A stretch of 32,000 bases of DNA. Source: Massilicoli timonensis. Lineage in GTDB: Bacteria; Bacillota_I; Bacilli_A; Erysipelotrichales; Erysipelotrichaceae. Below are positions 485-16,274 of the stretch, in pieces. A model generated the notes under the pieces. That model saw only the letters and a list, made by a program, of their open reading frames with translations, was not told the DNA's origin and did not search any database. How positions within the stretch are numbered: position 1 is the first letter of the stretch; the number at the start of each line of letters is the position of its first letter. The translations under genes and the position numbers were made by a program. The DNA lies in contig NZ_LT963434.1 of assembly GCF_900199515.1 (NCBI RefSeq), positions 543,272 through 575,271 on the forward strand. Reading direction: 5' to 3'.

Positions 485-712
485 ACAATAAAAAAGATCC
501 GCTCCTCTAGGAACGAATCATCGCGGTACCATCCTAGTTCATATCAGTTTATCTGATATGCCCTCACTTGTCTATAACGCCAGACGTTTGCGCAAAGCTC
601 AAAAAGCAGCTTCCCATCATCGCTCCCAAGAAGTTTTCACCAGCCACTTCCTCTCTGCATGAGCAGTCCGATCACGGTACTTATCCTTTCTCATCGCTTT
701 GTTTGATAACGT
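485..712 (-). promoter_or_regulatory. T-box leader (tRNA-sensing transcription attenuator) of alaS
   Basis: The minus strand reads AGGATGGTACCGCG (rc of about 520-535), close to the conserved T-box core AGGGUGGUACCGCG. It is followed by a U-tract (rc of 490-495) just before the alaS RBS. Upstream are a GCGATGAG K-turn-like start and an AGAGAGG box. A candidate GCU (Ala) specifier sits in GAAGCUG (rc of 608-610). I did not fold the structure fully. Confidence 0.8.
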
Positions 713-829: not shown

Positions 830-1390
830 TTATTCTGCTTTTTTCAATTCCTTCCATTCACTTTCTAAAATCGACATTAAAATATCATCTGCATACTTCT
901 CTCCATCTAAAACGGCATCTCTTAAAACACCTTCTCGCTGAAACCCTGCTTTTAAGTATACTTTTTCAGCTCTGGCATTAAATGAATATACATCTAATTC
1001 TAAACGATGTAGTTTTAACACTTCAAAAGCAAAATCGCGTGTAATTTCCGTTGCCCATGTACCAATACCTTTTCCCCTTTCCGTTTGACGATAAAGACCA
1101 ATACGAAAATTAGCACACTTCAAATCCCAATCAATTTCATTGATTACGCTTTCTCCTATGATTTCTCCATTAGGTGCTATAATCAAAAAGAAATACCGAT
1201 CATCTTCCTCAAGCGATTTCATGAAAAAGGATATGACTTCTTCCTTTGAAAACGCTTCTTTGCAGCCAGTCAGTCGTGCCACTTCCTTGTCTAAAGGACA
1301 ATAATTCTGTTCGTAATAATCAATCGCATCTTCTGCTTTAGCTAGACGAATTACAAATCCGTCTTTCTTACCGATAACGTCTATATTCAT
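830..1390 (-). CDS. GNAT-family N-acetyltransferase (RimJ/RimL-like)
   Basis: Trimmed from ORF 830..1534 to the ATG at 1390, which has the RBS GGAAAGGAAAA upstream. The product MNIDVIGKKDGFVIRLAKAEDAIDYY...RGKGIGTWATEITRDFAFEVLKLHRLELDVYSFNARAEKVYLKAGFQREG carries the acetyl-CoA-binding R/Q-x-x-G-x-G/A motif and the typical GNAT C-terminus. Confidence 0.85.
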   Translation of the reverse strand: MNIDVIGKKDGFVIRLAKAEDAIDYYEQNYCPLDKEVARLTGCKEAFSKEEVISFFMKSLEEDDRYFFLIIAPNGEIIGESVINEIDWDLKCANFRIGLYRQTERGKGIGTWATEITRDFAFEVLKLHRLELDVYSFNARAEKVYLKAGFQREGVLRDAVLDGEKYADDILMSILESEWKELKKAE

Positions 1391-1472
1391 ATATTTTTTC
1401 CTTTCCGACTTTTCATTCTTCCTTATTGTAGCAATCAAAAGGAATAAGCACAAGTGTGTTTCTGCAAGGATC

Positions 1473-1499
1473 ATCAAAAGCGATGAAAAATGCACCTTC
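1473..1499. repeat. 27-bp direct repeat, copy B (atcaaaagcgatgaaaaatgcaccttc)
   Basis: Matches 745-771 with one mismatch. A further 10-mer caatcaaaag at 1432-1441 equals 743-752. Confidence 0.8.
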
Positions 1500-1504
1500 C
1501 GCAT

Positions 1505-1545
1505 AAAAAGAAAAGAAGCGCAAGAGTTACCCAAACGCTTCTTTA
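1505..1545 (-). terminator. Rho-independent terminator after nifJ
   Basis: Stem gaagcg (1515-1520) pairs with cgcttc (1536-1541). The minus-strand transcript has a U-rich run after the stem (rc of aaaaagaaaa at 1505-1514). Confidence 0.6.
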
Positions 1546-5300: not shown

Positions 5301-5334
5301 ATCAAAAGCAAAGCACAGTCTTTTAGACCGTGCC
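5301..5334 (-). terminator. Rho-independent terminator after the giant repeat-protein gene
   Basis: Stem gcacagtc (5313-5320) pairs with gaccgtgc (5326-5333), with one G-U pair. On the minus strand it is followed by UUUGCUUUUG. It lies 30 nt downstream of the stop at 5365. Confidence 0.5.
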
Positions 5335-5364
5335 TGCTTTCTGCTTGTCGATGTTGTTTATCGC

Positions 5365-8300
5365 TTATTCCAATACCATTTTTACGGTCGTGGCATTGAC
5401 GCTGCTTTCCCGGTTGATGATGCCGACCAGGTAGCGGCTGTCAGAGACGATGGTAAATTCACATACCGGAAGTGGATTGCCGCCGTTTAAGGAATAGCGT
5501 ACGATCGGATAACGTCCGCTGATCTCCTCTACTTTATAATCGCCCTGCGGCAGATCCTGTAGCGTATAGTCCCAGTTATTGGAAGCATCTAAGATCACAT
5601 CCGTTTCATAGGCGCCGCTGATCCGCACCGTAAAAACTTCCTCAGGCTGCGGCTTTACATAATCGTCGCCGCGGCGGATAAACTTCAGCAGCTGGATCGA
5701 ACTTTGCGAACTGCCGCGTTCGTTTAAGATCCGCACCGTGTGCGCGCTGTTATTGATGACAAAGCGGGCATTGTCGCCGGCGGCGCCGCTGTCCACCACA
5801 TAGCGTACCGTGTCAGACGCAGATCCGCTTTCCACCACATCATAGATGCCGGCCGGCAAATGATCGATCGTTTCCGTGAACAGATTGTCAGCGTTGAGCG
5901 TATAGATCTGATAAAAGTTTTCCGATGACAACGTCACTTCAAAGCTGTCAGTGGCACTTGGCCGAGTATAAGTGCCGTCTGCCGCTTTCACATACTTGCT
6001 GATCAGCAGACTGCCGCCGCCGCTTTGCTCATTGTTGATGATCTGGACATTGTGATTATCCCCTTGAATGGTTACGTTCGCATAGCCGACCTCACTTTGT
6101 CCATCGACGATATAGGTCGTATCATAACCGCCGCTTACTTCATTTATGACATACTGCCCATCTGGCAGCGTCAGATCCAAGGCAAAATAATTATTCGCAT
6201 TCAGATCATAGAACTCATTAAAGCCGGACGCGCTGATATGCACACGGAAGCTTTGCTCATCAGAAGGCGTGCGAATATCGCCGGCAGCGCTTCTGATCGT
6301 CTTGCTGATATGCAGATTGGTGCTTCGCTGCGTGTTGATGATCTGCACATCATGGACTTGCGCGTCGATCGTTACATTGGCATAGCTCACTTCACTTTGT
6401 CCATCGATCACATACGTAGTCTCATAGCGATCATCGTTTTCACGAATATGATACGTTCCCGGCTCTAACTGCAGCTGTAAACGCCACTGATTCGCTTCAT
6501 TTAAGACAAAGTATTCATTGTAGCCCGCCTTGGAAATGTGGATCTCAAAGCTTTGATCGCTTTGCGGTGAAACGAGCACGCCTTGCGGCGAACGCATCAC
6601 TTTTTCCAGCCGCAAATTGCCAAATGCCGGCATGGCGTTGATCACAAGTACCGTATGGGCATCGCCGTTTACCTGCACATTGGCAAAATCCACCTCATAC
6701 CCGCCGTCAATGATAAAGCTGGCTTCTTCTCCCTGTTCGCTGATCACATACGTGCGCGGCTCCAGATTGTTCAAAACCATCCGGAAACGATTGCTTTGAT
6801 CAAGCGTTACCGTTTCCTGAAAGCGCGGCGCGCTGATCAGAAAGTCATATGATGCAGACATCGGCGGATCTTGTAAAACACCGTTTTCATCACGCACCTT
6901 TTTGCTTAAAGCGATACTGCCGGTGGCAGTGCGCCTTTCGGTATTGATGATCTGCAAGTAGTGCACATCATCCTGGATCTGCACATTGCCAAAGCTCGTC
7001 TCTCCCTGACCATCTAAAATATAAGTGGTGTCATAAGCGCCGCCGATCTCATTTACCACATATAAACCATTATCCAGCGACAGCTCCAAGATCCAGTTAT
7101 TGGCTTCATTCAGTTCATAAAATTCACTAAATCCGGAACGGGTGATATGAACGGTAAAACGCTGATCCGTTTGCGGCCGCGCTAACGTACCATCCAGACG
7201 GCGCATGACCTTATCGATGCGTAGCTGTCCGCCGCTGCGGGATTCATTGATCGCAATGACCTGATGCTTGTCACTTTGTACGCTGATCTGGGCGATGCTG
7301 CCCACATCTTCCCCATCGATCAGATACGTAACGCGTCCCCCTTGCGCTTCCCGTATCGTGTAAACACCGGCCGGCAGATCTTCCAATACGCTTTGGAACG
7401 CATTGCTTCGATCCAAGATCACTTCTTCCCGATACTGATCGCCCTCTACCATAAACACGAAACGATCGCGGCGCGTCGGTTCAATGAGCGTATTCCCCGC
7501 TCCACGCAAGCGCTTGGTCAAGGTGATGCTGCCGCTTTGGGCGATCGGCGTATTGATGATCTGCACCTGATGATGACCATCCCCCAAACGCACATGACCG
7601 TTTTCCTGATACACGCCGTCTACCAGATACGTGGTCAAATAACGATCACTGCCCGTTTCACTGATCAAATAATCACCGCTGCGCAGATCATGCAGCGTTT
7701 CGCTCCAATGATTGCTGGAGGAAAGGATCAGCGTCTTGCGCATCTCACCGCTGACCTCTACCTGAAATACCTCCTGCTCCTGTGGCTTGATCAAACAGCC
7801 GCATGCTTCATCTTTGATGAATTTGCTGATCTGCAGCGAACTGCCTTTCATCTTGCTGTAAATGATCTCTACCGAAATATCCTCATCACGCATGCAGATG
7901 AACGCATAAGAGCGAAGCTTGCCCCCGTCGATACGATAGTTCCGTTTTTCATACTGCTCTAGTGACTGCGCACTTACTTCATAACGGCCTTTCTCTAAAG
8001 CGACGCTTTGGGCAAAGCCTTCCATCGCTTTTAAGGTTATCGTCTTAGAAGTGCCGATGCCTTCGATCTGTACCTCGATCTTTGAAACATCCAAGGCACT
8101 CTCATTGCCTTCTTCATCTATTGCAAAGGCCCGCAAATGCAAATTGCCTACCTCTTTCGGCCGTTCATTTAATGCCACCAAAGAAGAATTGCCTTTTAAG
8201 TGGAATGCTCCCTTGGCTAACTGCTGTCCGTTGAGATAATACGTTACCTGCATCGGATCAGCATTTTCTTCTTTGATCTGATATTCCCCTTTCGGTAAAC

Positions 8301-11300
8301 GCAGCTTTGCCTCAAACTGGTTTTTCGCATCCAGCGTTACCTGCTCTTCACGCATGCCGCTTATGACAAAATGGAAGGTTTCCTTTTCATCAGGACAGCC
8401 GGCACCATCGATCCGCTTGCATAGGGTGAGCGTATATTCCGGCGCTGCTTCCGCTAACGGCGTGTTGATGAGCATGATATCCAGATCATGATCGCTTAAT
8501 GCAAAGGTACCCATTTCCTGCTCTTTGCCATTGATGATGAATGAAGCGTCATAGCAGTCATCCATCCCTTCTTTGATCTCATAGCAGCCCTGCTCCAGAT
8601 CATCAAATACCGCACACCAGCCGCTGCCGGCATCCATGGTCGCATACTGCTTCATGCCGTTTTCCGCGATCAGACAGATTTCAAAGCATTCATCCTGCAT
8701 CGGGCGCCGCAGCATGCCGTTATGACGGATCCATTTTTCTACACACAGCGTGTGACGCAGACAGCAGTGCGCAATGATCTGGATCGAAAGCGGTCGATTT
8801 CCCACCTCAAAGCGGCCGGAACTGCTCTCTTTGCCATTGATGCACAGCGTAATATCCAAATCGTTCTCCTCCGCGATCTCATAGACCCCGCTACGCAGAA
8901 GCATGCACTGTTCAAAATCATTGTCGGCGCTGAGCGTAAAGCAGCACTCTTCCTCCTGTGAGCGCAGATAGAAGGTACTTGGATCACACAGCGGCAAGGC
9001 GCAGCCGTTTTCATCGACCAACCGCTGTTCAAAGCATACGCGGGTCTTGGTTTCCAAATAATTGACGATATCGACTTTCACATCTTCCTGTCCTACTGTA
9101 AAAGTATGATCGCTTGGCGCATTGTTTACATACATGTCGAAATCACAGCCGTCTTCTTCTACATAGTAAGTGCCCTGCTGCATATCGTGCAAGACATAAC
9201 AATATCCGTTATCCGCATGCAAAGTGATCGCCGCATCAAAGCATTTGTTGTAGATGCGCAGATGATAGCTTTCCTCTTTCGGGGTGAAACGACGTTCGCC
9301 ATCACTCACGAATTTACGCAGCGTTACCCGCTGTGCGCAGCACGGCATCTGATTTTCCAGTACGACATGCACATCACTGTCTTTGACGACCACATTCGCA
9401 TAAGGCCGACATACGCCCTCTACCACATAGCGAACCAAACAGCCATTATCGCTCAGCTGGGTAATGCGATAGGTTCCTTGCGGCAGGTCCGTCAAACACA
9501 TGCACCAGTTGTTGTCTTCATTCAATTCGATTTCTTCCTCATATGCACAGGATTGTAAGCATACGCGCAGCGCTTCTCCCATTTCACAGGTATTGCCATC
9601 GCCATCCACAAACAGCGCTTCGATCTGCAATGCAGCCCGCGGCGTTTCTTCGTTGATGATCGCCACCTCATGATCATTGCCGCACACCATGACGCTCGCG
9701 CATTCTCCTTTCGGAAGCGCTTTGCCATTTACCACATATTGCGCTTCTTCATGCAGCTCACTGATGCGGTAGCAGCCTTCCTCCAAACGATCCAAAAGGG
9801 CACAGAAGCCATTGCCCGCATGCAGACAGAGTGAATACATCTGATGATCGCTTTCCACGATGACCTCATAACGCTGGGTGGTATCCGGTCTTACCAGATC
9901 GCCGCATGCCGTATTGATCCATTTTGATACGCTCAAGCTGCCATAACGCTGCCCTTTGTTTCGATTATAGACCGCGATCTCTTTACAGTCACCGCCCTCT
10001 AAACAAACCCTGCCATGATTTTGCATACAGCCGTGATCGACACTGAAGCAGACCTCATCGCAGCTGCCGTGTTCCTTCAATTCATAACAGCCCGGGCACA
10101 AATGGTCAATGACCGCATACCAGTTGTTTTCACAGTTTAATGTGATCATATTGCGATAATCAAATCCTCGCAGGGAAAAATAGAATACATCGGCTTCATC
10201 TGGACGATGCCAGCACCCGTCCTCTTTCATCACATACTTGCTGATGATCAGTTTTCCGCTCGCTTTCCGTTCGTTGATGATCTCTACAAGCGTGCGGCAT
10301 TCCGGATCGATTTCCACACATGCTTCACTTTGCATGCGACCGCGGTTGATCCGATAATTCACTTCATATTCACAATCACACTGTTCCTCGATCGTATAAG
10401 TGCCTGCACATAAACAGCCGATATCCACGCTCCAGCTGTTAGATGCGTTCAGATAATAAACATCGTCTTTCCCACATCCGCACACACGCACCGCAAATGC
10501 TTCATCGCAGGCCGGATCCACCTCCAGCCCATATTCGTCCCTGATAAATTTGCGGATCTTCAAATTCCCCTGCATATCGGCAGGCGTATGATCACAGCGG
10601 ATCAGCTCGATCAGATGCTCGCCGCCCTCTAAGCGCAATAACGCATAGTTTTCCTTGACCCGATCACAGTCCACCTGATAACATAAACCATCATCATCGC
10701 TTTGGATGCTGTAAACACCGTTTGGCAGATCATCCAGTTCCAGCAGATAATGATTTTCTCTGCACAGCGTAAACCACTCATCAAAGCAGTGATCGCTGCT
10801 TACGATATGCACCCGTGTTTCGCTTTCCTCACAATCCGAAGCAAAGCGCACCGTCAAGATCGAACAATGCGTCATCACTTCATTGATTACCAGCGTATGA
10901 TCCCCTTCTAATAAAAAGCGGCAGTCGCTGACTTCACCATCTAAATAATGACACACTTCTCCCTCATATACATTTTCATCACACAATTCATATACGCCCT
11001 GCATGAGACCCTTGCATTCCGCACGCCAGTCATTCCGGCAGTCTAACGTCATGCAAATATCCCGGGTCGGTGTATGCAGCGTATAAGTAAACACTTCGTC
11101 TTCCTCATGCGAAATCGTATCGCCGATCGGATTTTGACGCATCAGTACAAGGGAAAGCGATGCATAGCGCAGCTGTTCCATCACGATCAGCACTTCATGC
11201 ACTTCCTTGCATACGGTGAATTTCGCAAAGTTCTCCTGCGCTTCCACCCCATCCACAAAATAACTGATCGCATACTGCTCCTGATTCATCAATGGATCAC

Positions 11301-11571
11301 CGCACGCATCCGCAATCGAGATGCTGACCAGCTCCGGATCCACATCATAGATCACACTTTCCCCGCTGCCGTTTTCCGCCACTTGGATCGCATAGTGCTG
11401 CGTTCTTCCTGAAACTGTCCCCATGACGGCCTGGTACATGCCGCCCATCGCCTGTCCGTTTTCATCTTTCACTTCCAAAGTAACGTGAATTTGACTTTTA
11501 TCCTTCAATTCGACATGGTTGAGCAGTGCAAACCGGGCAAACTGTCGTGTATAAATACCCCATGTTTTCAT
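5365..11571 (-). CDS. Giant (2,068 aa) tandem-repeat protein of about 20 consecutive ~100-aa beta-sandwich modules (CnaB/SpaA prealbumin-like adhesin-stalk type). No signal peptide, LPXTG or other anchor is recognisable.
   Basis: A single uninterrupted ORF with a strong RBS (GAAGGAGGAAACGG-ATG). The recurring module pattern is [SN]-L-x-[IL]-x-K ... F-x-V-x-[IV] ... N-x-[WF] ... L-x-x-G-x-Y-x-[IV]-x-E ... Y-x-[VI]-[DN]-G ... H-x-V-x-I-I-N. The N-terminus MKTWGIYTRQFARFALLNHVELKD has no hydrophobic h-region. The C-terminus ...INRESSVNATTVKMVLE has no sorting signal. Confidence 0.9.
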   Translation of the reverse strand: MKTWGIYTRQFARFALLNHVELKDKSQIHVTLEVKDENGQAMGGMYQAVMGTVSGRTQHYAIQVAENGSGESVIYDVDPELVSISIADACGDPLMNQEQYAISYFVDGVEAQENFAKFTVCKEVHEVLIVMEQLRYASLSLVLMRQNPIGDTISHEEDEVFTYTLHTPTRDICMTLDCRNDWRAECKGLMQGVYELCDENVYEGEVCHYLDGEVSDCRFLLEGDHTLVINEVMTHCSILTVRFASDCEESETRVHIVSSDHCFDEWFTLCRENHYLLELDDLPNGVYSIQSDDDGLCYQVDCDRVKENYALLRLEGGEHLIELIRCDHTPADMQGNLKIRKFIRDEYGLEVDPACDEAFAVRVCGCGKDDVYYLNASNSWSVDIGCLCAGTYTIEEQCDCEYEVNYRINRGRMQSEACVEIDPECRTLVEIINERKASGKLIISKYVMKEDGCWHRPDEADVFYFSLRGFDYRNMITLNCENNWYAVIDHLCPGCYELKEHGSCDEVCFSVDHGCMQNHGRVCLEGGDCKEIAVYNRNKGQRYGSLSVSKWINTACGDLVRPDTTQRYEVIVESDHQMYSLCLHAGNGFCALLDRLEEGCYRISELHEEAQYVVNGKALPKGECASVMVCGNDHEVAIINEETPRAALQIEALFVDGDGNTCEMGEALRVCLQSCAYEEEIELNEDNNWCMCLTDLPQGTYRITQLSDNGCLVRYVVEGVCRPYANVVVKDSDVHVVLENQMPCCAQRVTLRKFVSDGERRFTPKEESYHLRIYNKCFDAAITLHADNGYCYVLHDMQQGTYYVEEDGCDFDMYVNNAPSDHTFTVGQEDVKVDIVNYLETKTRVCFEQRLVDENGCALPLCDPSTFYLRSQEEECCFTLSADNDFEQCMLLRSGVYEIAEENDLDITLCINGKESSSGRFEVGNRPLSIQIIAHCCLRHTLCVEKWIRHNGMLRRPMQDECFEICLIAENGMKQYATMDAGSGWCAVFDDLEQGCYEIKEGMDDCYDASFIINGKEQEMGTFALSDHDLDIMLINTPLAEAAPEYTLTLCKRIDGAGCPDEKETFHFVISGMREEQVTLDAKNQFEAKLRLPKGEYQIKEENADPMQVTYYLNGQQLAKGAFHLKGNSSLVALNERPKEVGNLHLRAFAIDEEGNESALDVSKIEVQIEGIGTSKTITLKAMEGFAQSVALEKGRYEVSAQSLEQYEKRNYRIDGGKLRSYAFICMRDEDISVEIIYSKMKGSSLQISKFIKDEACGCLIKPQEQEVFQVEVSGEMRKTLILSSSNHWSETLHDLRSGDYLISETGSDRYLTTYLVDGVYQENGHVRLGDGHHQVQIINTPIAQSGSITLTKRLRGAGNTLIEPTRRDRFVFMVEGDQYREEVILDRSNAFQSVLEDLPAGVYTIREAQGGRVTYLIDGEDVGSIAQISVQSDKHQVIAINESRSGGQLRIDKVMRRLDGTLARPQTDQRFTVHITRSGFSEFYELNEANNWILELSLDNGLYVVNEIGGAYDTTYILDGQGETSFGNVQIQDDVHYLQIINTERRTATGSIALSKKVRDENGVLQDPPMSASYDFLISAPRFQETVTLDQSNRFRMVLNNLEPRTYVISEQGEEASFIIDGGYEVDFANVQVNGDAHTVLVINAMPAFGNLRLEKVMRSPQGVLVSPQSDQSFEIHISKAGYNEYFVLNEANQWRLQLQLEPGTYHIRENDDRYETTYVIDGQSEVSYANVTIDAQVHDVQIINTQRSTNLHISKTIRSAAGDIRTPSDEQSFRVHISASGFNEFYDLNANNYFALDLTLPDGQYVINEVSGGYDTTYIVDGQSEVGYANVTIQGDNHNVQIINNEQSGGGSLLISKYVKAADGTYTRPSATDSFEVTLSSENFYQIYTLNADNLFTETIDHLPAGIYDVVESGSASDTVRYVVDSGAAGDNARFVINNSAHTVRILNERGSSQSSIQLLKFIRRGDDYVKPQPEEVFTVRISGAYETDVILDASNNWDYTLQDLPQGDYKVEEISGRYPIVRYSLNGGNPLPVCEFTIVSDSRYLVGIINRESSVNATTVKMVLE

Positions 11572-11805
11572 CCGTTTCCTCCTTCTTCATTGAAAACACA
11601 TACTGATTACACTGCATTATATGAACGAATGCCCAAAATTGTGCCCATATCCCGGAAATTAGCCTAAGATTTATCGAAATGCACTAAAATGACATGCACT
11701 GTTTGGCTACAACGCATTTATCTGTACTGCTCATCTTGCCGATATCTATAAAAATAATCCTTTTTTATCAGAAGGCTTTATGCCCTTGCGGCCTTTGCTT
11801 GATCA

Positions 11806-11836
11806 AACAAAAAAAACAGCCTGACGACTGTTTTGA
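11806..11836 (-). terminator. Weak rho-independent terminator after the 281-aa membrane-protein gene
   Basis: The minus strand reads AAAACAG-ucgucagg-CUGUUUU followed by UUUUG (rc of 11806-11834). The stem is AU-rich, so confidence is modest. Confidence 0.4.
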
Positions 11837-11848
11837 TCATAAAACACT

Positions 11849-12694
11849 TTATTTTTTCTTTCGCTTCTGTAGCGACGGCGCTTCTTCGATCAAAAAGAAA
11901 TTGTCTTTCGCATCTTCATACAGCAGCGCATAAAATGTATAAATATAAGCATACAGATAACTATTGACGACCAGCTGCACCGCCTGCACACCCAATAGCG
12001 CATATCCGATCATCAAGGTCTTTTCATATTGCAAAGCATGATACATCACACTGCCGCTTGCCATGATCGCGTTCAGCTCTTCGCTGCTCGGATTTAAGAT
12101 CTCAAGAAACTGGGCAGTCAGTAAATTGGTTACGACCATCAATGTCAGATAGACCAGAATATAAACACCTGCCGCCTGCAACATCTCTTTGGCAAAAGAG
12201 CGGACAAAGCGGATACTGGAAAGACAGATCTTAAAAATACCGCGATAGCCGTCGCTGATCGCAAAGGCCGCGATCGCTTCGACCATCATGACCAAAAGCG
12301 ATACGAAAAATACGCCTACCGCATACAGCGATGGAATCCATTGCAGCGCCAAAGCCACCACAAACAGCAGCGCCACATTGCCAAGTCCCAAGATGATCGC
12401 GACCAAAAACATCGCCAGTATCTGTGCGCCGTTTAAGCGCAGTGCGCGAAAGCGAAGCGTCTTTGTTCTCGTTAATTGCAAAAATAACATATATACATAT
12501 AAATTAGCGGCGATCAATACAACCGTAATAAGAAAAGAAACGATCTTAAAGTTGTCATTTCCACTGTAAAAAGAGGAAAGCATCGAATTTAACATCGAAA
12601 TAAAATTCAGTGTCAAGATCACCGCAAACAATTTCATACGCGAGCTTTGTAACAGCTCCATCGCTTTCTTTTTATAACTATCGTAACGACTCAT
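11849..12694 (-). CDS. Polytopic integral membrane protein of unknown function (DUF975-like by recollection)
   Basis: Trimmed from ORF 11849..12721 to the ATG at 12694, which follows the RBS GAAGGAG at 7-nt spacing. There are about six hydrophobic segments. The N-terminus MSRYDSYKKKAMELLQSSRMKLFAVIL resembles the DUF975 family start. Confidence 0.7.
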   Translation of the reverse strand: MSRYDSYKKKAMELLQSSRMKLFAVILTLNFISMLNSMLSSFYSGNDNFKIVSFLITVVLIAANLYVYMLFLQLTRTKTLRFRALRLNGAQILAMFLVAIILGLGNVALLFVVALALQWIPSLYAVGVFFVSLLVMMVEAIAAFAISDGYRGIFKICLSSIRFVRSFAKEMLQAAGVYILVYLTLMVVTNLLTAQFLEILNPSSEELNAIMASGSVMYHALQYEKTLMIGYALLGVQAVQLVVNSYLYAYIYTFYALLYEDAKDNFFLIEEAPSLQKRKKK

Positions 12695-12781
12695 ATAATC
12701 TCCTTCTATCATTTCTAACATGCGTTATCATCATATCCTAAATCAAGCAAAAAAGCAACTTCTCTCTTTACTAGCATAAAC

Positions 12782-12820: not shown

Positions 12821-13282
12821 TCATGCGTGAACTTTTGATTTACGCACTTCCGCCTTACCGGCTTTCTGATGGAAATACTTTTTCATCTTCATTGGAGAAA
12901 GCGAGCGAAAGACGATCTTTTCACCGTTTTTGAGCGATACATGCACACGGTCGGTATCAAAGCGCCCGCGTTCATATGTCCAAGAAGCGATCTCATCCCA
13001 GAATACGATATAACACTCCTGTGGATCACGCTCATTGTAAAAGACGACAAAATCTTCATAAAATTCCGTCATTACCTGATTTTTATTGACCAGCAGATAA
13101 TACAGAAAGATCCCGATCAACAATATGCCAAACAGCAAATTCGAGCGATAGGCTATATAAATGCCGAGCAATAAAAAGAAAATAATAAATCCATAGGGCT
13201 TTGACTGAATATCTCCCAATTTATAATCACGTTCAGGAAGATTTCTCACTTTCAGCTTCTTACTTTTCAATTCCACAAGCAT
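12821..13282 (-). CDS. Small membrane protein with a two-TM hairpin plus a C-terminal soluble domain (bacterial PH / YdbS-like architecture)
   Basis: ORF-track protein with the hydrophobic pair GFIIFFLLLGIYIAY and LLFGILLIGIFLYYLLV, followed by an ~85-aa soluble domain. The RBS GAGGTGG abuts the ATG, so the GTG two codons downstream is an alternative start. Confidence 0.65.
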   Translation of the reverse strand: MLVELKSKKLKVRNLPERDYKLGDIQSKPYGFIIFFLLLGIYIAYRSNLLFGILLIGIFLYYLLVNKNQVMTEFYEDFVVFYNERDPQECYIVFWDEIASWTYERGRFDTDRVHVSLKNGEKIVFRSLSPMKMKKYFHQKAGKAEVRKSKVHA

Positions 13283-13303: not shown

Positions 13304-13332
13304 ATTATATTCTATTGTAATTACAAGCGCAA
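13304..13332 (-). promoter_or_regulatory. Putative sigma-A promoter of the 153-aa membrane-protein gene
   Basis: Minus strand: TTGCGC (rc 13327-13332), 17-nt spacer, TATAAT (rc 13304-13309). The -35 hexamer abuts the left copy of the IS target duplication. Confidence 0.4.
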
Positions 13333-13359
13333 TTTTATGCAAGACAATCACATAATTTC
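13332..13359. repeat. 28-bp target-site duplication, left copy (attttatgcaagacaatcacataatttc)
   Basis: Identical to 14885-14912. The two copies immediately flank the IS. Confidence 0.85.
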
Positions 13360-13451: not shown

Positions 13452-14852
13452 ATGAGAGAGGTTGTATTAAGAATGAAAGAACAATATAAATATGAAATTA
13501 TTAAAAAATTAGTTGATACCAACGGAAACAAGAAAAACGCTGCTTTGAAATTGCATTGCACGATCCGTACCGTGAATCGTTTGATTCTGTTATATCAGAA
13601 TGAAGGAAAAGAAGGTTTTATCCATAAGAATAGAAACAGGAAACCTTCTACCACTATTCCTGAAGATACAAGACGTAAAGTGATCGATCTGTATCGTACT
13701 AAATATCATGATGCCAATTTTACTCATTTTTCTGAACTCCTTTTGAAGAATGAGAATATTTCTGTTAGTGATTCTACCATTAAGAAATGGTTATTTGATG
13801 AAGGGATCCTTTCTCCTAAAGCAAGAAAGAAAACGATCAAAAAAATGAAATCTATCTTGAGCGAGCATAAGAAACGATCAAATTCTAAAAAAGAACTGGT
13901 TAAGATCGAGGAAAAACTTGAACGCTTAGATAGATCTGATGCTCATCCTCGCCGTCCTCGTTGTGCTTACTTTGGTGAATTGATTCAGATGGATGCCTCT
14001 CCTCACCTTTGGTTTGGTGATACCATCTCCCATCTTCATTTAGCGATCGATGATGCCACCGGTATGATCGTGGGTGCTTATTTTGATCGTCAGGAAACAT
14101 TAAATGCTTATTATCAAATTACCTACCAGATACTCACTGCTTATGGCATCCCCGCTAAGTTCTTCACAGATCGTCGTACTGTTTTTGAATACAAAAGAAA
14201 AAACGCATCTTCTGATGAAGAAGACACGTTTACACAGTTCTCTTATGCCTGTCATCAATTAGGGATCGAATTAGAATGTTCAAGCGTTCCGCAAGCAAAA
14301 GGGCGTGTAGAACGCTTGAACCAAACCCTGCAATCTCGTTTACCTATTGAACTTAGACTTGCAGGTATTTCCACCATAGAGGAAGCCAACGAGTTCTTAA
14401 ACTCCTACATAAAAGAATTCAATGACATGTTCTCTCTACCCTTAAATAATACTAAAACAGTATTTGAAAAGCAACCGGAGAACACAAAAATCAATCAAAT
14501 CTTAGCTGTATTGAGTACACGTAAAATAGACAACGGTCACTGTATACGCTATAAGAACAAGTATTACATACCTGTTACAAAAAATGGAATCAGGACATAC
14601 TTGAAAAAAGGTACTACAGCCATGGTCATCGAATCCTTTGAAGGAAGTTTATATGTCAATATTCTTGATCAGCTTTTCGTTATGGTAGAAATTCCTGAAC
14701 ATGAAGAACTGTCTAAAACTTTTGATGTACAATATGAGAAACCTAAACAAAGAAAGTACTATATACCGCCTATGTCACATCCTTGGAAACATGCTTCTTA
14801 TCTCAATTATGTGGCAAAACAAAAGCACCGAATGAATGGTGCTAATGTTTGA
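13452..14852 (+). CDS. DDE (rve integrase-core) transposase with an N-terminal HTH
   Basis: The N-terminal MKEQYKYEIIKKLVDTNGNKKNAALKLHCTIRTVNRL is HTH-like. Candidate DDE residues are in IQMDASPH, FFTDRRTVF and KGRVERLNQTLQ. RBS is GAGAGG. The family call (ISNCY/IS1202 group) is from memory of similar annotated proteins, not from a search. Confidence 0.9.
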   Translation: MREVVLRMKEQYKYEIIKKLVDTNGNKKNAALKLHCTIRTVNRLILLYQNEGKEGFIHKNRNRKPSTTIPEDTRRKVIDLYRTKYHDANFTHFSELLLKNENISVSDSTIKKWLFDEGILSPKARKKTIKKMKSILSEHKKRSNSKKELVKIEEKLERLDRSDAHPRRPRCAYFGELIQMDASPHLWFGDTISHLHLAIDDATGMIVGAYFDRQETLNAYYQITYQILTAYGIPAKFFTDRRTVFEYKRKNASSDEEDTFTQFSYACHQLGIELECSSVPQAKGRVERLNQTLQSRLPIELRLAGISTIEEANEFLNSYIKEFNDMFSLPLNNTKTVFEKQPENTKINQILAVLSTRKIDNGHCIRYKNKYYIPVTKNGIRTYLKKGTTAMVIESFEGSLYVNILDQLFVMVEIPEHEELSKTFDVQYEKPKQRKYYIPPMSHPWKHASYLNYVAKQKHRMNGANV

Positions 14853-14884: not shown

Positions 14885-14912
14885 ATTTTATGCAAGACAA
14901 TCACATAATTTC
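14885..14912. repeat. 28-bp target-site duplication, right copy
   Basis: Identical to 13332-13359. Confidence 0.85.
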
Positions 14913-15120: not shown

Positions 15121-16185
15121 TCATGCTCGCTTTAGATAAGCCATGCTGATCCTGCCGGTTACTTTGCCGTTTATACCGATGACCGCCGTCTGCGAAGCAT
15201 TGGACAGTTCCATGATCGTATAGATGTTTTGATAGACAAAGCCTGCGATCGGCACCTGATTGACCCAGGTGGCGCCAACGCCCTGCTTGACCATGACCTG
15301 ATCGCCTATCTGAAACAGCTGCTCAATGATCGAAGCATCATTCAGCCAGCCTGAACCGTCATTGATCAGATAAGGATTTCTTCTTCCTGCCAATATCTTT
15401 GTGATCGTACCGCTGTGAATCAGCGCTTTCAGCGGCGTTGTCGAAGTAGAAGAAGCAAACAGCACATCAAAATAAACCCGTTCCCCGATTCGATGCGCAA
15501 GTGAAGGCGTGCCTCCTGCCGTCGTTTCCTCATACACATGGTCTTTGTTCCATGTCTGCAGCCAGCCATGATCGCTGCTCGCATCAAGTCCTTCTGACGG
15601 GATTCCCTCAATGCCTTTTAACACCCCTTGTTTTGCTCTTGAAGTAAATTGGTGCAGCAGCACATGATCGAAAGGATCATAGAGCAGTTTGCCGTTCCAT
15701 TCATCATAGCCGGAATTGGTGCCGTAATCAGCCAGCCACAGCGTCCATGCCGCAAATCCGGGATTCGTCAATTTATTGCGGAACCAATCGGTATTCGCAT
15801 AGATCCCGACCGGGATCCCAACCGCCTCGATCTCATCACAGAATGCCTTGGCGATCGCATACAGCTGTTCATTGCTCAGATTCCCCTGCTGCGGCGTATA
15901 TTCTAAATCATAATACAAGACGCGGATACGATAGCCTTTGATCGCGGATAAAGCTAACTTCGCCTCCTTTTTGGCTTCTTCCTCGTTTCGGGCATAAGCA
16001 AAGTGATATGCCCCCAATGGGATGCCTAAATCATTTGCCTGTTTGGCATTATGCGCCCACTGTGCATCGATCTGCCCTGCGCTCCAGCCATAAGAACAAC
16101 GTGCGATCACCCCATCGATTCGACTCATTGCCAAAGCAAGATCGGTTTCTCCCTGATAAACAGAGATATCAATAATCGGTTTCAT
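15121..16185 (-). CDS. GH25-family muramidase (lysozyme) with a C-terminal SH3-like wall-binding region and no signal peptide
   Basis: Trimmed from ORF 15121..16278 to the ATG at 16185 (RBS AGAAAGGAG). The N-terminus MKPIIDISVYQG matches the GH25 D-x-S-x-x-Q start, and VLYYDLEY matches the D-x-E catalytic block. The C-terminal ~130 aa look like tandem SH3b-type repeats. Confidence 0.85.
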   Translation of the reverse strand: MKPIIDISVYQGETDLALAMSRIDGVIARCSYGWSAGQIDAQWAHNAKQANDLGIPLGAYHFAYARNEEEAKKEAKLALSAIKGYRIRVLYYDLEYTPQQGNLSNEQLYAIAKAFCDEIEAVGIPVGIYANTDWFRNKLTNPGFAAWTLWLADYGTNSGYDEWNGKLLYDPFDHVLLHQFTSRAKQGVLKGIEGIPSEGLDASSDHGWLQTWNKDHVYEETTAGGTPSLAHRIGERVYFDVLFASSTSTTPLKALIHSGTITKILAGRRNPYLINDGSGWLNDASIIEQLFQIGDQVMVKQGVGATWVNQVPIAGFVYQNIYTIMELSNASQTAVIGINGKVTGRISMAYLKRA

Positions 16186-16274
16186 AATCGACTCCTTTCT
16201 ATAGCGCTTCGCTATACTTATGGATATGTAAGCAAACAGTGTGCGGTATGGACAAAAAGGAAAACAGATCCATC

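Follow-up and report, generated by a model that had tools for sequence, protein, structure and literature searches.

A giant protein of 2,068 aa, encoded in the stretch of 32,000 nucleotides of a gut Erysipelotrichaceae bacterium analyzed here (the window), consists of 20 tandem domains of the type that forms the stalks of Gram-positive pilins and adhesins, but lacks the export signal, the ligand-binding tip and the wall anchor of these surface proteins. It belongs to a family for which at least 26 relatives were found, and all of those with a taxonomic placement come from Erysipelotrichaceae or Erysipelotrichales. We tentatively interpret the protein as a rod that would be produced in the mother cell and displayed on the spore surface.

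The original prediction of an uninterrupted 6.2-kb open reading frame, with a strong ribosome-binding site and an in-frame stop just upstream, is confirmed by the list of open reading frames with its translation and by direct reading of the sequence (Table 1). Because the upstream TGA lies six codons before the ATG, an N-terminal extension of the frame is impossible. The gene has its own promoter-like site and its own terminator-like hairpin, and since another such hairpin parts it from the preceding membrane-protein gene, it constitutes a separate transcription unit.

Table 1. Features of the giant gene, its product and the conserved upstream neighbours
Feature	Position in window	Strand	Remarks
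Giant protein CDS, stop codon included	5365..11571	minus	ATG start, 2,068 aa; single ORF
RBS GAAGGAGG	11578..11585	minus	6 nt 5' of ATG; strong; sequence read directly
In-frame TGA	11587..11589	minus	six codons (18 nt) 5' of ATG; sequence read directly
Promoter-like AC-N17-CATATAAT, sigma-K/sigma-E type	11616..11642	minus	-35 AC 11642-11641; -10 CATATAAT 11623-11616
Intrinsic-terminator-like hairpin	5311..5335	minus	directly past the stop codon of the giant gene
Terminator-like hairpin	11813..11834	minus	between the upstream membrane-protein gene and the giant gene
N-terminal peptide, aa 1-23	11503..11571	minus	not a signal peptide; short helix aa 4-14 predicted, low confidence
Module 1, aa 26-133	11173..11496	minus	divergent CnaB-like beta-sandwich; AlphaFold of aa 1-236, pLDDT 86.6
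Modules 2-20, aa 137-2059	5395..11163	minus	back-to-back ~100-aa sandwiches, predicted CnaB/DUF5979 type
C-terminal tail, aa 2060-2068, ends SVNATTVKMVLE	5368..5394	minus	hydrophobic, strand-like
Cysteine-rich part, aa ~90-1260	7792..11304	minus	~70 of 72 Cys
Cysteine-free part, aa ~1261-2035	5467..7791	minus	0 Cys
290-aa polytopic membrane protein	11849..12721	minus	5-6 TM; conserved neighbour; no Pfam or NCBIfam family
153-aa PH-like protein	12821..13282	minus	basic N-terminus, TM hairpin aa 32-65, 88-aa C-terminal domain
Conserved motif GTGGAATT(G/A)TGTGAT..TTG	13332..13359	minus	upstream of the PH-like gene

The protein comprises a 23-residue N-terminal peptide, contiguous β-sandwich modules of ~100 aa and a 9-residue tail. 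A jackhmmer self-profile covered aa 94-2059 with 19 complete modules plus a partial one, spaced by 0-6 residues, and the AlphaFold model of aa 1-236 completes a further β-sandwich of the same kind at aa 26-133, which brings the total to 20, in line with the predicted number of back-to-back modules. The companion claim that there is nothing else in the protein was nearly right, except that it left out the conserved N-terminal peptide of ~20 residues, with an amphipathic spacing of hydrophobic residues in most homologues, and the C-terminal tail, a hydrophobic, strand-like ending of the hKhVhE type that is kept across the family. Module 1 was considered as a distinct tip domain, and this was rejected given that AlphaFold and Foldseek identify it as a CnaB-like β-sandwich, with matches to PitA, the ancillary pilin 4oq1 and Spy0128 (E 5e-9 to 1e-7).

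A single module was modelled by AlphaFold with a pLDDT of 97, and the best PDB matches of this model detected by Foldseek come from Gram-positive pilins and adhesins with isopeptide bonds, along with the Cna B repeat; no different characterized fold emerged. The module profile matches the Cna B repeats 1d2p (E=5e-4), and in a profile search of 1.84 billion representatives, the first proteins outside the family are DUF5979/FctA/Cna_B adhesins. These models and profile matches support grouping the modules with stalk domains of the isopeptide-bonded CnaB/DUF5979 type, as the original assignment to a CnaB/SpaA-type fold had it; the likeness is remote because, in contrast to the stalk adhesins, Pfam itself calls no Cna_B- or DUF5979-type domain in the window protein, none of whose single modules reaches significance. 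The Lys-Glu-Asn triad is present in 166 of the 208 family modules, with K-E-D in 5, and the full Lys7/Glu61/Asn96 set is found in 13 of the 18 modules scored in the window protein. Lys and Glu are lost together (36 of the 37 Lys-less modules also lack Glu), and the commonest triad-less pattern is A/V/T/G/I-Q-N (21 modules). In the single-module model, Lys belongs to the first strand and Asn to the last one, which is the CnaB-type geometry; CnaB-type isopeptide bonds form spontaneously in the E. coli cytoplasm. Most modules are probably locked by such a Lys-Asn bond.

The module fold is the same as in sortase-anchored stalk adhesins and pilins (CnaB/SpaA/DUF5979/FctA), compared here through the S. 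aureus Cna B repeats 1d2o/1d2p, S. pyogenes Spy0128 and T-antigens, S. oralis PitA/PitB, the Mobiluncus mulieris adhesin 5u6f, and two DUF5979 proteins with a VWA tip that were detected in this analysis, P0070 and P0087. The two groups share the signature motifs L.I.K ... L..N.W ... L..G.Y.V.E ... V.IIN, the Lys of the first strand, the Glu and the Asn of the last strand, and the tandem, rod-like arrangement, and the module profile joins them directly. Outside the family, the module relatives that come closest are classical adhesins with a signal peptide, a VWA tip and an xPxTG motif, whereas the giant protein lacks a signal peptide, a tip for ligand binding, an LPXTG/xPxTG motif and a TM tail; no sortase gene accompanies it, and its promoter does not appear to be of the sigma-70 type.

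The absence of a signal peptide and of a wall anchor noted originally holds up on closer scrutiny. Across the whole giant protein, the Kyte-Doolittle mean over 19 residues peaks at 1.25, and within the first 45 residues the maximum over 15 residues is 0.32, compared to 2.2-3.1 in signal-peptide-bearing relatives; a sequence scan detected neither an LPXTG-like motif nor a C-terminal TM segment, and the upstream stop leaves no room for a hidden signal. There is no sortase gene in the window and the flanks examined, no ligand-binding tip or effector domain in the protein, and no WXG/LXG-type helical domain in its AlphaFold models. Sec signals, TM segments and sortase motifs are likewise missing from the window protein, P0002-P0010, P0053-P0066, P0072, P0076, P0079 and P0084; all 26 family clusters examined lack both signal peptide and anchor, and a search for relatives above 60% identity with a signal peptide and an LPXTG motif yielded none. 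Because the protein combines the lack of an export signal, anchor and tip domain with a high cysteine content, we propose that it is built inside the cell.

Cysteine accounts for 2.4-4.7% of the residues in family members (3.5% in the giant protein) versus 0-0.55% in the signal-bearing module relatives, P0088 being the exception at 1.7%. In all 26 members, the cysteines are polarized such that the N-terminal ~60% is filled and the C-terminal third is devoid of them, and single positions are poorly conserved (17%). Such a gradient combined with poor positional conservation fits intermolecular cross-linking of one half of the molecule and exposure of the other. Firmicutes reportedly keep cysteine out of exported proteins, and the coat and exosporium layers typically hold cysteine-rich proteins, such as CdeC.

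The -10 element of the promoter-like site ends 44 nt 5' of the ATG, and in a scan of both strands this site was the sole match to AC-N16-17-CATATA[AC]T in the window. CATATA(A/C/T)T is found 19-52 nt 5' of the ATG in all 19 distinct homologous upstream regions, those of the divergent P0079 and P0072 loci included, and in 9 of the 19, the window among them, the -35 AC is located 16-17 nt upstream of the -10. In sequence terms, a -10 of this kind with AC at 16-17 nt is the sigma-K pattern: C. difficile sigma-K promoters have a -35 AC and a -10 CATATAAT (PMC3789822), and a-ena, which encodes a spore fibre, is preceded at a distance of ~46 bp by a putative SigK site of the AC...CATATAAT type (PMC13111695). 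The promoter scan reported no sigma-70 -35/-10 pair in this region, and the gene may be read by a sigma-K or sigma-E type factor. The -10 also includes a perfect sigma-A -10 (TATAAT), and an activator-dependent sigma-A promoter would look identical; in the 'MNKHLL' clade, a conserved TTCGCTTT replaces the -35 AC and a LysR gene adjoins the giant gene. The motif scan found no other genes that share the extended promoter motif.

Two genes for membrane proteins are conserved upstream of the giant gene. A homologue or paralogue of the 290-aa protein is encoded directly upstream in 17 loci and also adjoins the distant member P0079; there are two paralogue types (hhalign probability of 98.5% to each other), and the family was seen in this clade only. 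The PH-like gene lies upstream in all 17 loci with enough flank; the C-terminal domain of its product only weakly resembles a bacterial PH domain (Pfam bPH_7, E=0.014) and is predicted to be cytoplasmic because of the positive-inside rule. Both neighbours are under a sigma-A-like promoter different from that of the giant gene: the conserved motif that precedes the PH-like gene resembles a sigma-A -35 combined with an operator, unlike the giant gene promoter. Because PFOR downstream of the giant gene is likewise syntenic in many loci, common descent alone may account for part of the neighbour linkage. In the MNKHLL clade, an FHA / PP2C / kinase / 71-aa / ~1,040-aa / FHA-FtsK_SpoIIIE cluster, which by domain content can be read as type VIIb-like, starts ~1.9 kb downstream; no T7SS-like locus is present in the window or in the MSK clades. 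The window also contains a signal-less GH25 endolysin-like gene (15121-16188) that adjoins an IS insertion and is not conserved at this site, which is occupied by an MscS gene in L007 and other loci.

Of the three fates originally weighed, namely a cytoplasmic protein, assembly in the mother cell and exit by a non-classical route, the cysteine data and the promoter motif favor, without proving, the second, and our best, albeit tentative, explanation is a mother-cell-made spore-surface rod. Under this scenario, the sigma-K/sigma-E-type promoter would drive transcription of the gene in the mother cell at a late stage of sporulation, and a single chain of 20 CnaB/DUF5979-type domains, ~80-100 nm long, would be made and folded in the cytoplasm, most of its modules locking themselves via an autocatalytic Lys-Asn isopeptide bond. 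The rod would then be deposited on the developing spore, with the cysteine-rich N-terminal ~60% set into the matrix of the coat or exosporium and cross-linked there by disulfides, and the cysteine-free C-terminal third forming an outward-facing hair that withstands proteases and heat. No signal peptide, sortase or wall anchor would be needed because mother-cell lysis would expose the rod to the outside. The two conserved membrane proteins might, for example, take part in docking on that side of the outer forespore membrane which faces the mother cell.

C. difficile CdeC/CdeM and Bacillus CotY/ExsY are cysteine-rich, signal-less, mother-cell-expressed and disulfide-assembled proteins that resemble the giant protein in high cysteine content and lack of a signal peptide but are small (about 150-400 aa), adopt unrelated folds and have neither CnaB-type modules nor isopeptide triads. 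A precedent by analogy is provided by the known endospore appendages, which are signal-less, mother-cell-made and covalently cross-linked, through disulfides in Enas and isopeptide bonds in A-ENA (PMC13111695 for A-ENA). Those of the B. cereus group (S-/L-ENA, with DUF3992 subunits, and the A-ENA 'sporesilk') are extremely robust fibres; the site upstream of a-ena lies at a distance comparable to that of the giant gene, and the cysteines of Enas give intermolecular linkage, as proposed here. However, ENAs are polymers of small jellyroll or alpha-hairpin subunits and are spore-borne, whereas the giant protein is one 2,068-aa CnaB-type chain whose spore association is only proposed and whose isopeptide bonds, unlike those of A-ENA, would be intramolecular; the two are related neither in sequence nor in fold, and Pfam gave no DUF3992 match.

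Among the alternatives, it is hardly credible that the gene is an LPXTG adhesin that has decayed or been truncated, that its start is misannotated or that a repetitive gene was misassembled, even though one homologue is named 'Cna B-type domain-containing protein' by NCBI and the relatives of the modules belong to ordinary adhesins. The architecture is retained in homologues of 28-61% identity, and 26 clusters, some of them at 28% identity or lower, have the same ends; the window protein shares 99% identity with cluster P0001, which comprises 160 member sequences, and 14 of its 15 listed members have the full length of 2,068 aa; the gene shows no DNA-level tandem repeats; and the conserved triad, the strong RBS and the stop 18 nt upstream of the ATG add to the case. 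A rather unlikely option is a fibre on or outside the vegetative cell, exported by an undescribed Sec-independent route via the two upstream membrane proteins, which would also hold it at the membrane, or via the type VIIb locus adjacent in one clade. The constant presence of the 2-TM PH-like protein, the polytopic family that accompanies the giant gene even at the P0079 locus and is seen nowhere else, the MNKHLL cluster, and isopeptide locking, which best suits a protein facing gut proteases, all speak for such export. Yet the conserved cluster includes no ATPase or known translocon, the membrane genes have a different promoter and a terminator before the giant gene, the soluble PH-like domain is predicted to face the cytoplasm, and the linkage, shared with PFOR, may be partly ancestral; moreover, the T7SS-like locus is absent from the window and the MSK clades, the giant protein has no WXG/LXG-type domain, and its 72 cysteines clash with the exclusion of cysteine from exported Firmicute proteins and with the exported module relatives.

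Should the protein instead stay in the cytoplasm as a structural rod, tethered to the inner membrane face by the PH-like domain or the polytopic partner and serving as a spacer, ruler or scaffold, the lack of an export signal in any member, the high cysteine content, the predicted side of the PH-like domain and the reported non-spore-forming nature of the probable host would all be accommodated, and the conserved amphipathic helix and C-terminal strand could dock onto partners. We consider this unlikely, given that it leaves the strictly cysteine-free C-terminal third without a reason throughout the family and offers no clear reason for ~14 isopeptide locks, known to resist proteolysis and mechanical stress outside the cell; in addition, the promoter has no sigma-A -35 and the fold has no known cytoplasmic precedent. 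Quite improbable is accumulation in the cytoplasm followed by release through lysis of some cells, an autolysis public good that would yield an extracellular matrix or adhesive fibre. The large clostridial toxins TcdA/TcdB, to which this route can be likened, also exceed 2,000 aa, lack a signal peptide and rely on non-classical release, but differ in being enzymatic toxins whose locus encodes a holin-like partner, whereas the giant protein has neither an effector domain nor a holin. The robust, cross-linked, signal-less fold and the nearby GH25 gene are compatible with lysis; that this gene is not conserved at its site and lies beside an IS insertion is not what this route would lead one to expect, and the conserved membrane partners and promoter motif would be left unexplained.

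Returning to the spore-surface rod, Longicatena caecimuris, one host species of the family (locus L012), is regarded as spore-forming and was recovered from faeces treated with ethanol (PMC8340488). Massilicoli timonensis, the probable host of the window protein, is described as non-spore-forming, in a brief culturomics note only (PMC6796691), which counts against the spore reading, as do the lack of sporulation genes in the window and the flanks examined, the TATAAT in the -10, the TTCGCTTT and LysR gene of the MNKHLL clade, the sigma-A-like promoter of the neighbours and the unshared motif. In the literature searched, no protein of CnaB-type fold has been reported in spores; if the spore reading is true, the surface fibre would represent a new use of the CnaB-type pilus-stalk fold.

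The giant gene is a single uninterrupted reading frame with a strong ribosome-binding site (RBS), as originally noted, and the in-frame stop noticed just upstream of it is a TGA six codons (18 nt) 5' of the ATG, so that no signal peptide can be hidden in an N-terminal extension; an overlooked upstream extension of the frame is thereby ruled out. The two terminator-like hairpins that flank the gene define it as a separate transcription unit. The 99%-identity cluster of the giant protein comprises 160 member sequences, drawn from many metagenome assemblies, and 14 of the 15 listed members have the full length of 2,068 aa, which indicates that the open reading frame (ORF) is real and intact. Neither could an assembly or repeat artefact be its source, given that no DNA-level tandem repeats were found in the gene. 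A phage origin was tested and rejected: the giant protein and both of its membrane neighbours lack a PHROG match, and the gene sits in chromosomal surroundings. Rfam yielded no RNA elements near the gene, NCBIfam had nothing for the protein or its neighbours, and the only NCBI labels on the homologues are "hypothetical protein" and "Cna B-type domain-containing protein".

Features of the window around the giant gene and at its flanks
Feature	Position	Strand	Remarks
T-box leader	506-703	-	Rfam RF00230, 102 bits; 3' of the GNAT gene
GNAT gene	830-1534	-	
Terminator-like hairpin	5335-5311	-	directly 3' of the stop of the giant gene
Giant gene	5365-11571	-	2,068 codons, ATG start
RBS GAAGGAGG		-	6-nt spacer to the ATG of the giant gene; read from the sequence
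Promoter-like site AC-N17-CATATAAT	11642-11616	-	only recognisable element between the upstream terminator and the RBS
Terminator-like hairpin	11834-11813	-	closes the gene upstream of the giant gene
Polytopic membrane protein gene	11849-12721	-	290 aa
PH-like protein gene	12821-13282	-	153 aa
Direct duplication GAAATTATGTGATTGTCTTGCATAAAAT	13332-13359, 14885-14912	- (both)	exact, 28 bp
ISNCY-family transposase gene	13452-14852	+	between the two copies of the duplication
GH25 muramidase gene	15121-16188	-	probable start MKPIIDIS
GDSL-like hydrolase, DUF4358, MBOAT O-acyltransferase and DHHW/AlgX-like protein cluster	23897-29307		
IS110-family transposase	26692-27924		interrupts the preceding cluster

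The protein had been described as a row of modules and nothing else. A jackhmmer self-profile delineated 19 full modules of ~100 aa plus a partial one; they span aa 94-2059 and are joined by linkers of 0-6 residues. An AlphaFold model of aa 1-236, computed from an alignment of 16 family N-termini (pLDDT 86.6), contains β-sandwiches at aa 26-133 and 136-232, both of which match pilin domains (PitA, 4oq1 and Spy0128; Foldseek E 5e-9 to 1e-7), preceded by a low-confidence peptide (aa 1-23) with a short helix at aa 4-14. Combined, these data resolve the chain into a 23-aa N-terminal peptide, 20 modules and a 9-aa tail, so that the earlier description is nearly right. According to the self-profile, AlphaFold and Foldseek, the modules fill the whole chain and there is no separate tip domain. 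The C-terminal tail is hydrophobic and strand-like in nearly all family members (VKMVLE, LKIVIE, LRIVIE, VRVVIE, VLQYKI and similar). A head-to-tail donor-strand polymer, in which this tail would complete the N-terminal domain of the next chain, is unsupported because module 1 is predicted to be complete (pLDDT >90).

Structure prediction and comparison agree with the original assignment of the modules to the CnaB/SpaA-type β-sandwiches and place the fold with those of pilins and adhesins. The AlphaFold model of the module at aa 1651-1752, obtained from an alignment of 123 modules, has eight strands and a pLDDT of 97; its top Foldseek matches are pilins, adhesins and Cna B1 (E 2e-4 to 1e-2, TMq 0.5-0.7). 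The best matches in the PDB, namely GAS T-antigens, the Mobiluncus adhesin 5u6f (TMq 0.70), PitA/PitB, Cpa, the B. anthracis TIE protein and Cna B1, are all isopeptide-bonded pilins or adhesins of Gram-positive bacteria. At the sequence level, the giant protein has no Pfam match to Cna_B, SpaA or DUF5979 at E<=1, single modules of the window protein reach E-values of 0.085-0.14 at best, below the gathering threshold, and the homologue P0007 passes the whole-protein cut-offs of SpaA and Cna_B only through summed weak matches. The family's own module profile matches the Cna B repeats (1d2p) with E=5e-4, so that the homology is remote but real, and the module can be considered a remote member of the well-known CnaB superfamily. 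A Pfam match to AMPK1_CBM (27.9 bits vs a cut-off of 26.8) was dismissed as a summed cross-match of sandwich motifs without any individually significant stretch; the classical adhesin P0070 gives the same weak match.

In CnaB-type domains, an intramolecular isopeptide bond forms autocatalytically between a lysine of the first strand and an asparagine of the last strand, with an acidic residue as the catalyst. Across 208 modules from ten family proteins, the consensus reads G.L.I.K..R...G.L..P.....F............L...N.W...L..L..G.Y.I.E......V.Y..NG..E...A.V........V.IIN, with K7 conserved in 83%, E61 in 84%, N96 in 90%, N44 in 98% and Y57 in 97% of the modules. The triad is K-E-N in 166 of these modules and K-E-D in another 5; where the lysine is absent, the glutamate is nearly always absent too (the sole exception is Q-E-A), the commonest pattern being A/V/T/G/I-Q-N, in 21 modules. 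The lysine, glutamate and asparagine of the module behave as a unit. In the model of the module at aa 1651-1752, they are predicted to lie in the first strand, at the end of strand 55-61 and in the last strand, respectively, and the full triad is present in 13 of the 18 window modules scored. The modules of the giant protein accordingly contain what sequence and model identify as a CnaB-type triad, with the bond itself being predicted.

A word-indexed search detected ten clusters of 2,068-2,540 aa that share 28-61% identity, and an exhaustive search of 1.84 billion representatives with the module profile produced 2,136 matches. At the top of this list are ~16 high-scoring full-length relatives (P0053-P0066), followed by four far more divergent family members (P0072, P0076, P0079 and P0084). 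The next proteins down the list (P0070, P0073, P0083, P0085, P0087, P0089-P0093 and P0097) are classical surface proteins, with a signal peptide wherever the N-terminus is complete, VWA-type tips in several cases, stalks of DUF5979, FctA, Cna_B or SpaA domains and, in most of them, xPxTG followed by a transmembrane (TM) segment and a basic tail.

The contrast with these classical relatives bears out the earlier observation that the giant protein lacks export and anchoring signals. The hydropathy of its first 45 aa is 0.32, compared to 2.2-3.1 in the classical relatives, and the Kyte-Doolittle mean over 19 residues peaks at 1.25, too low for a membrane anchor or a signal peptide anywhere in the chain. 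An LPXTG-like motif or TM segment is missing from the C-terminus of the giant protein and of all 26 family members, whereas the classical relatives with a complete C-terminus have an LPXTG-like motif, a TM segment and a basic tail; the exceptions are P0088, which has no C-terminal anchor, and P0089, in which the TM segment and basic tail are present without a recognised motif. The lack is a property of the entire family, no member of which has a signal peptide, a sortase motif or a TM segment at its C-terminus. No sortase domain was detected among the neighbouring ORFs scanned, and no ligand-binding tip or A-domain (VWA, thioester, CnaA and the like) in the giant protein. Features of type VII substrates are missing as well: there is no WXG100/LXG-type helical domain in the giant protein, which is all-β in the models, and no type VII secretion locus in the window; a T7SSb-like locus adjoins the giant gene in one clade only.

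The cysteines of the giant protein are distributed unevenly along the chain, with about 70 of the 72 falling within aa ~90-1260 and the stretch from ~1261 to 2035 having none, and this polarity, with a cysteine-rich N-terminal and a cysteine-free C-terminal part, is retained in 26 of 26 family members. The cysteine content of the signal-less family is 2.4-4.7% vs 0-0.55% in the classical group (with one outlier at 1.7%). Because the individual positions are conserved below average (17% vs ~28% overall), the cysteines look like a regional property rather than fixed structural disulfides. Daniels et al. are said to have found cysteine to be excluded from exported proteins in Firmicutes; such exclusion makes it very unlikely that members of the giant-protein family pass through Sec as unfolded chains. 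Taken together, the sequences and models show a protein that appears to be synthesised and to fold in the cytoplasm, forming a rod of predicted self-locking domains.

A scan of one genome per GTDB species located the giant gene in 14 species, all of them Erysipelotrichaceae or Erysipelotrichales, including Longicatena caecimuris DSM 29481, "Clostridiaceae bacterium OM02-2AC" and Bacterium c-19. Massilicoli timonensis, itself a member of the Erysipelotrichaceae, was not returned, although the search pattern occurs in the window protein; the giant protein's own cluster, P0001, has no NCBI source, and the 90% cluster of its 153-aa PH-like neighbour, P0201, includes the M. timonensis RefSeq protein WP_146003313.1. 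Given this combination of a missing NCBI source and a missing species, the giant gene may be broken, missing or unannotated in the type-strain draft genome, or the window may derive from a related species. The G+C content of the window is ~45%, and that of the published M. timonensis genome is 53% (PMC6796691). A brief species description (PMC6796691) gives M. timonensis as non-spore-forming; L. caecimuris, a carrier of the giant gene, was obtained from ethanol-treated faeces and is classed as a spore-former, and in the same study 74% of Erysipelotrichaceae genomes were predicted to belong to spore-formers (PMC8340488).

The promoter-like site of the giant gene fits the published sigma-K consensus of C. 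difficile, which consists of a -35 AC and a -10 CATATAAT; the sigma-E promoters of that species share the -10 and have a -35 ATA (Saujet et al., PMC3789822), and the spore-fibre gene a-ena has a similar putative SigK site 46 bp upstream (PMC13111695). The pattern AC-N16-17-CATATA[AC]T has a single match on both strands of the 32-kb window, that of the giant gene, with ~0.3 expected per window, and no sigma-70 -35/-10 pair is reported between the upstream terminator and the gene. Transcription from the site is predicted to begin near position 11609. A CATATA(A/C/T)T box is found 19-52 nt 5' of the ATG in 19 of 19 distinct homologous upstream regions, including those of the very divergent P0072 and P0079, and is preceded by AC at 16-17 nt in nine of them, comprising all members of the MKT and MSK clades. 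The MNKHLL clade has a conserved TTCGCTTT in place of the -35 AC, and an inserted LysR-type gene separates the giant gene from that of the membrane protein (L001 8945-9841; also in L013, L015, L016, L018, L019 and L021); regulation of the giant gene may have changed in this clade. The match to a mother-cell sigma promoter is suggestive and, because the same box contains the sigma-A -10 TATAAT, not decisive. When metagenome contigs were scanned with the extended motif CTCATATAMTAGAATGT, only the giant gene's own promoters and chance matches were recovered. Sigma-H, considered on account of a conserved TAGAATGT 3' of the -10, was rejected, there being no AGGA -35 by eye and TAGAATGT not being kept in the window or in L007. 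The leaders of L003, L005, L008 and L014 contain, between the -10 box and the RBS, an inverted repeat TATAAG ... CTTATA just 3' of TAGAATGT, which is absent from the window and could form an mRNA-stabilising 5' stem-loop.

In every locus with enough flanking sequence, the giant gene is preceded on the same strand by genes for a PH-like protein and for one or two polytopic membrane proteins. The PH-like protein (~150 aa) has a basic N-terminus followed by a TM hairpin; its C-terminal domain, of ~88 aa, matches bPH_7 only weakly (E=0.014). The polytopic proteins (~240-300 aa) belong to no known family and are found only in this clade; their two paralogue types match each other with an hhalign probability of 98.5%, and a member adjoins the distant P0079 gene too. 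Word-based searches with the PH-like neighbour and the polytopic family retrieved close relatives only, without functional names. The promoter of the membrane-neighbour genes differs from that of the giant gene: it is sigma-A-like and contains a conserved GTGGAATTGTGTGAT motif. The two membrane proteins are probable partners of the giant protein.

In the window, an ISNCY element lies between two copies of GAAATTATGTGATTGTCTTGCATAAAAT; as this sequence is a conserved promoter- or operator-like motif 5' of the PH-like gene in all loci, the element inserted into that regulatory region. The GH25 muramidase, which has C-terminal SH3-like repeats and no signal peptide and matches phage endolysin families, occupies the place of a divergently transcribed MscS gene in related loci and is not conserved with the giant gene. 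In L003 (9742-9873) and L005 (7941-8072), a conserved 43-aa ORF (MNEVSIPIVITLQLDDTYVTLRIHFLRKDDQPYLLIQVEPLWN), absent from the window, separates the second membrane-protein gene from the giant gene. A cluster found in the MNKHLL clade ~1.9 kb 3' of the giant gene (L001 18838-26969; part also in L002), also absent from the window, encodes an FHA/YscD-like protein, a PP2C phosphatase, a Ser/Thr kinase, a 71-aa protein, a 1,037-aa Big-domain protein and an FHA-FtsK/SpoIIIE ATPase and looks like a type VIIb secretion locus; other loci of the clade (L013, L015, L016, L018 and L019) have a large ORF at a similar downstream distance. Elsewhere in the window, the T-box presumably controls a gene starting below position 506, and the cluster interrupted by the IS110-family transposase looks like a cell-envelope O-acylation system.

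That the giant protein is a degenerate adhesin or an artefact can be all but ruled out. The membrane neighbours raise the prospect of an uncharacterized route of export or anchoring through these partners; since synteny in many loci extends to MscS upstream and PFOR downstream, some of the linkage may be due to inheritance alone, and we regard such a route as unlikely. Slightly less probable is a cytoplasmic rod tethered to the membrane, a reading beside which the predicted cytoplasmic location of the C-terminal domain of the PH-like protein can be set. Release by lysis appears improbable.

The reading that we tentatively prefer is that the giant protein is a mother-cell product located on the spore, where its cysteine-rich N-terminal part would be cross-linked into coat or exosporium and the C-terminal part, free of cysteine, would be exposed. 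This spore-surface reading jointly accounts for the lack of export and anchor signals, the high and polar cysteine content, the predicted isopeptide locks and the putative type of promoter, and has a precedent in the endospore appendages (Enas and A-ENA), which are signal-less and covalently cross-linked. Somewhat more speculatively, the family might represent a new class of spore fibres in anaerobic gut Erysipelotrichaceae, each a single chain of 2,000-2,500 aa with ~20 isopeptide-locked CnaB domains, made in the mother cell without Sec or sortase, with the cysteine-rich N-terminal half embedded in coat or exosporium and the C-terminal third, which lacks cysteine, displayed. In evolutionary terms, a module of pilus stalks would have been recruited to spores, the signal peptide, tip and anchor being lost in the process.

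Textbooks present CnaB-type isopeptide domains as building blocks of surface proteins that are exported by Sec and handled by sortases; these domains also gave rise to the SpyTag/SpyCatcher technology. In the literature searched, we found no description of the architecture and cellular context of the giant protein; new in this literature are the lack of signal, tip and anchor, the high and polar cysteine content, the gene's own non-sigma-70 promoter and the clade-specific membrane partners. The family keeps the module and the triad, has lost all export and anchor features and has gained dozens of cysteines, suggesting that the CnaB fold also serves structures assembled from within the cell. 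The cultured strains L. caecimuris DSM 29481 and M. timonensis DSM 103513 offer a direct experimental handle on the family. Should the protein be cytoplasmic, or exported by its two uncharacterized membrane partners, it would represent a new cell-biological role or a new export route. Erysipelotrichaceae are abundant gut commensals whose transmission depends on spores, and if the giant protein forms a fibre on these spores, it would be the first candidate structural protein of the spore surface in this family and would add, beside the Ena and A-ENA types, a third ultra-stable fibre chemistry that combines intramolecular isopeptide locks with disulfide anchoring.
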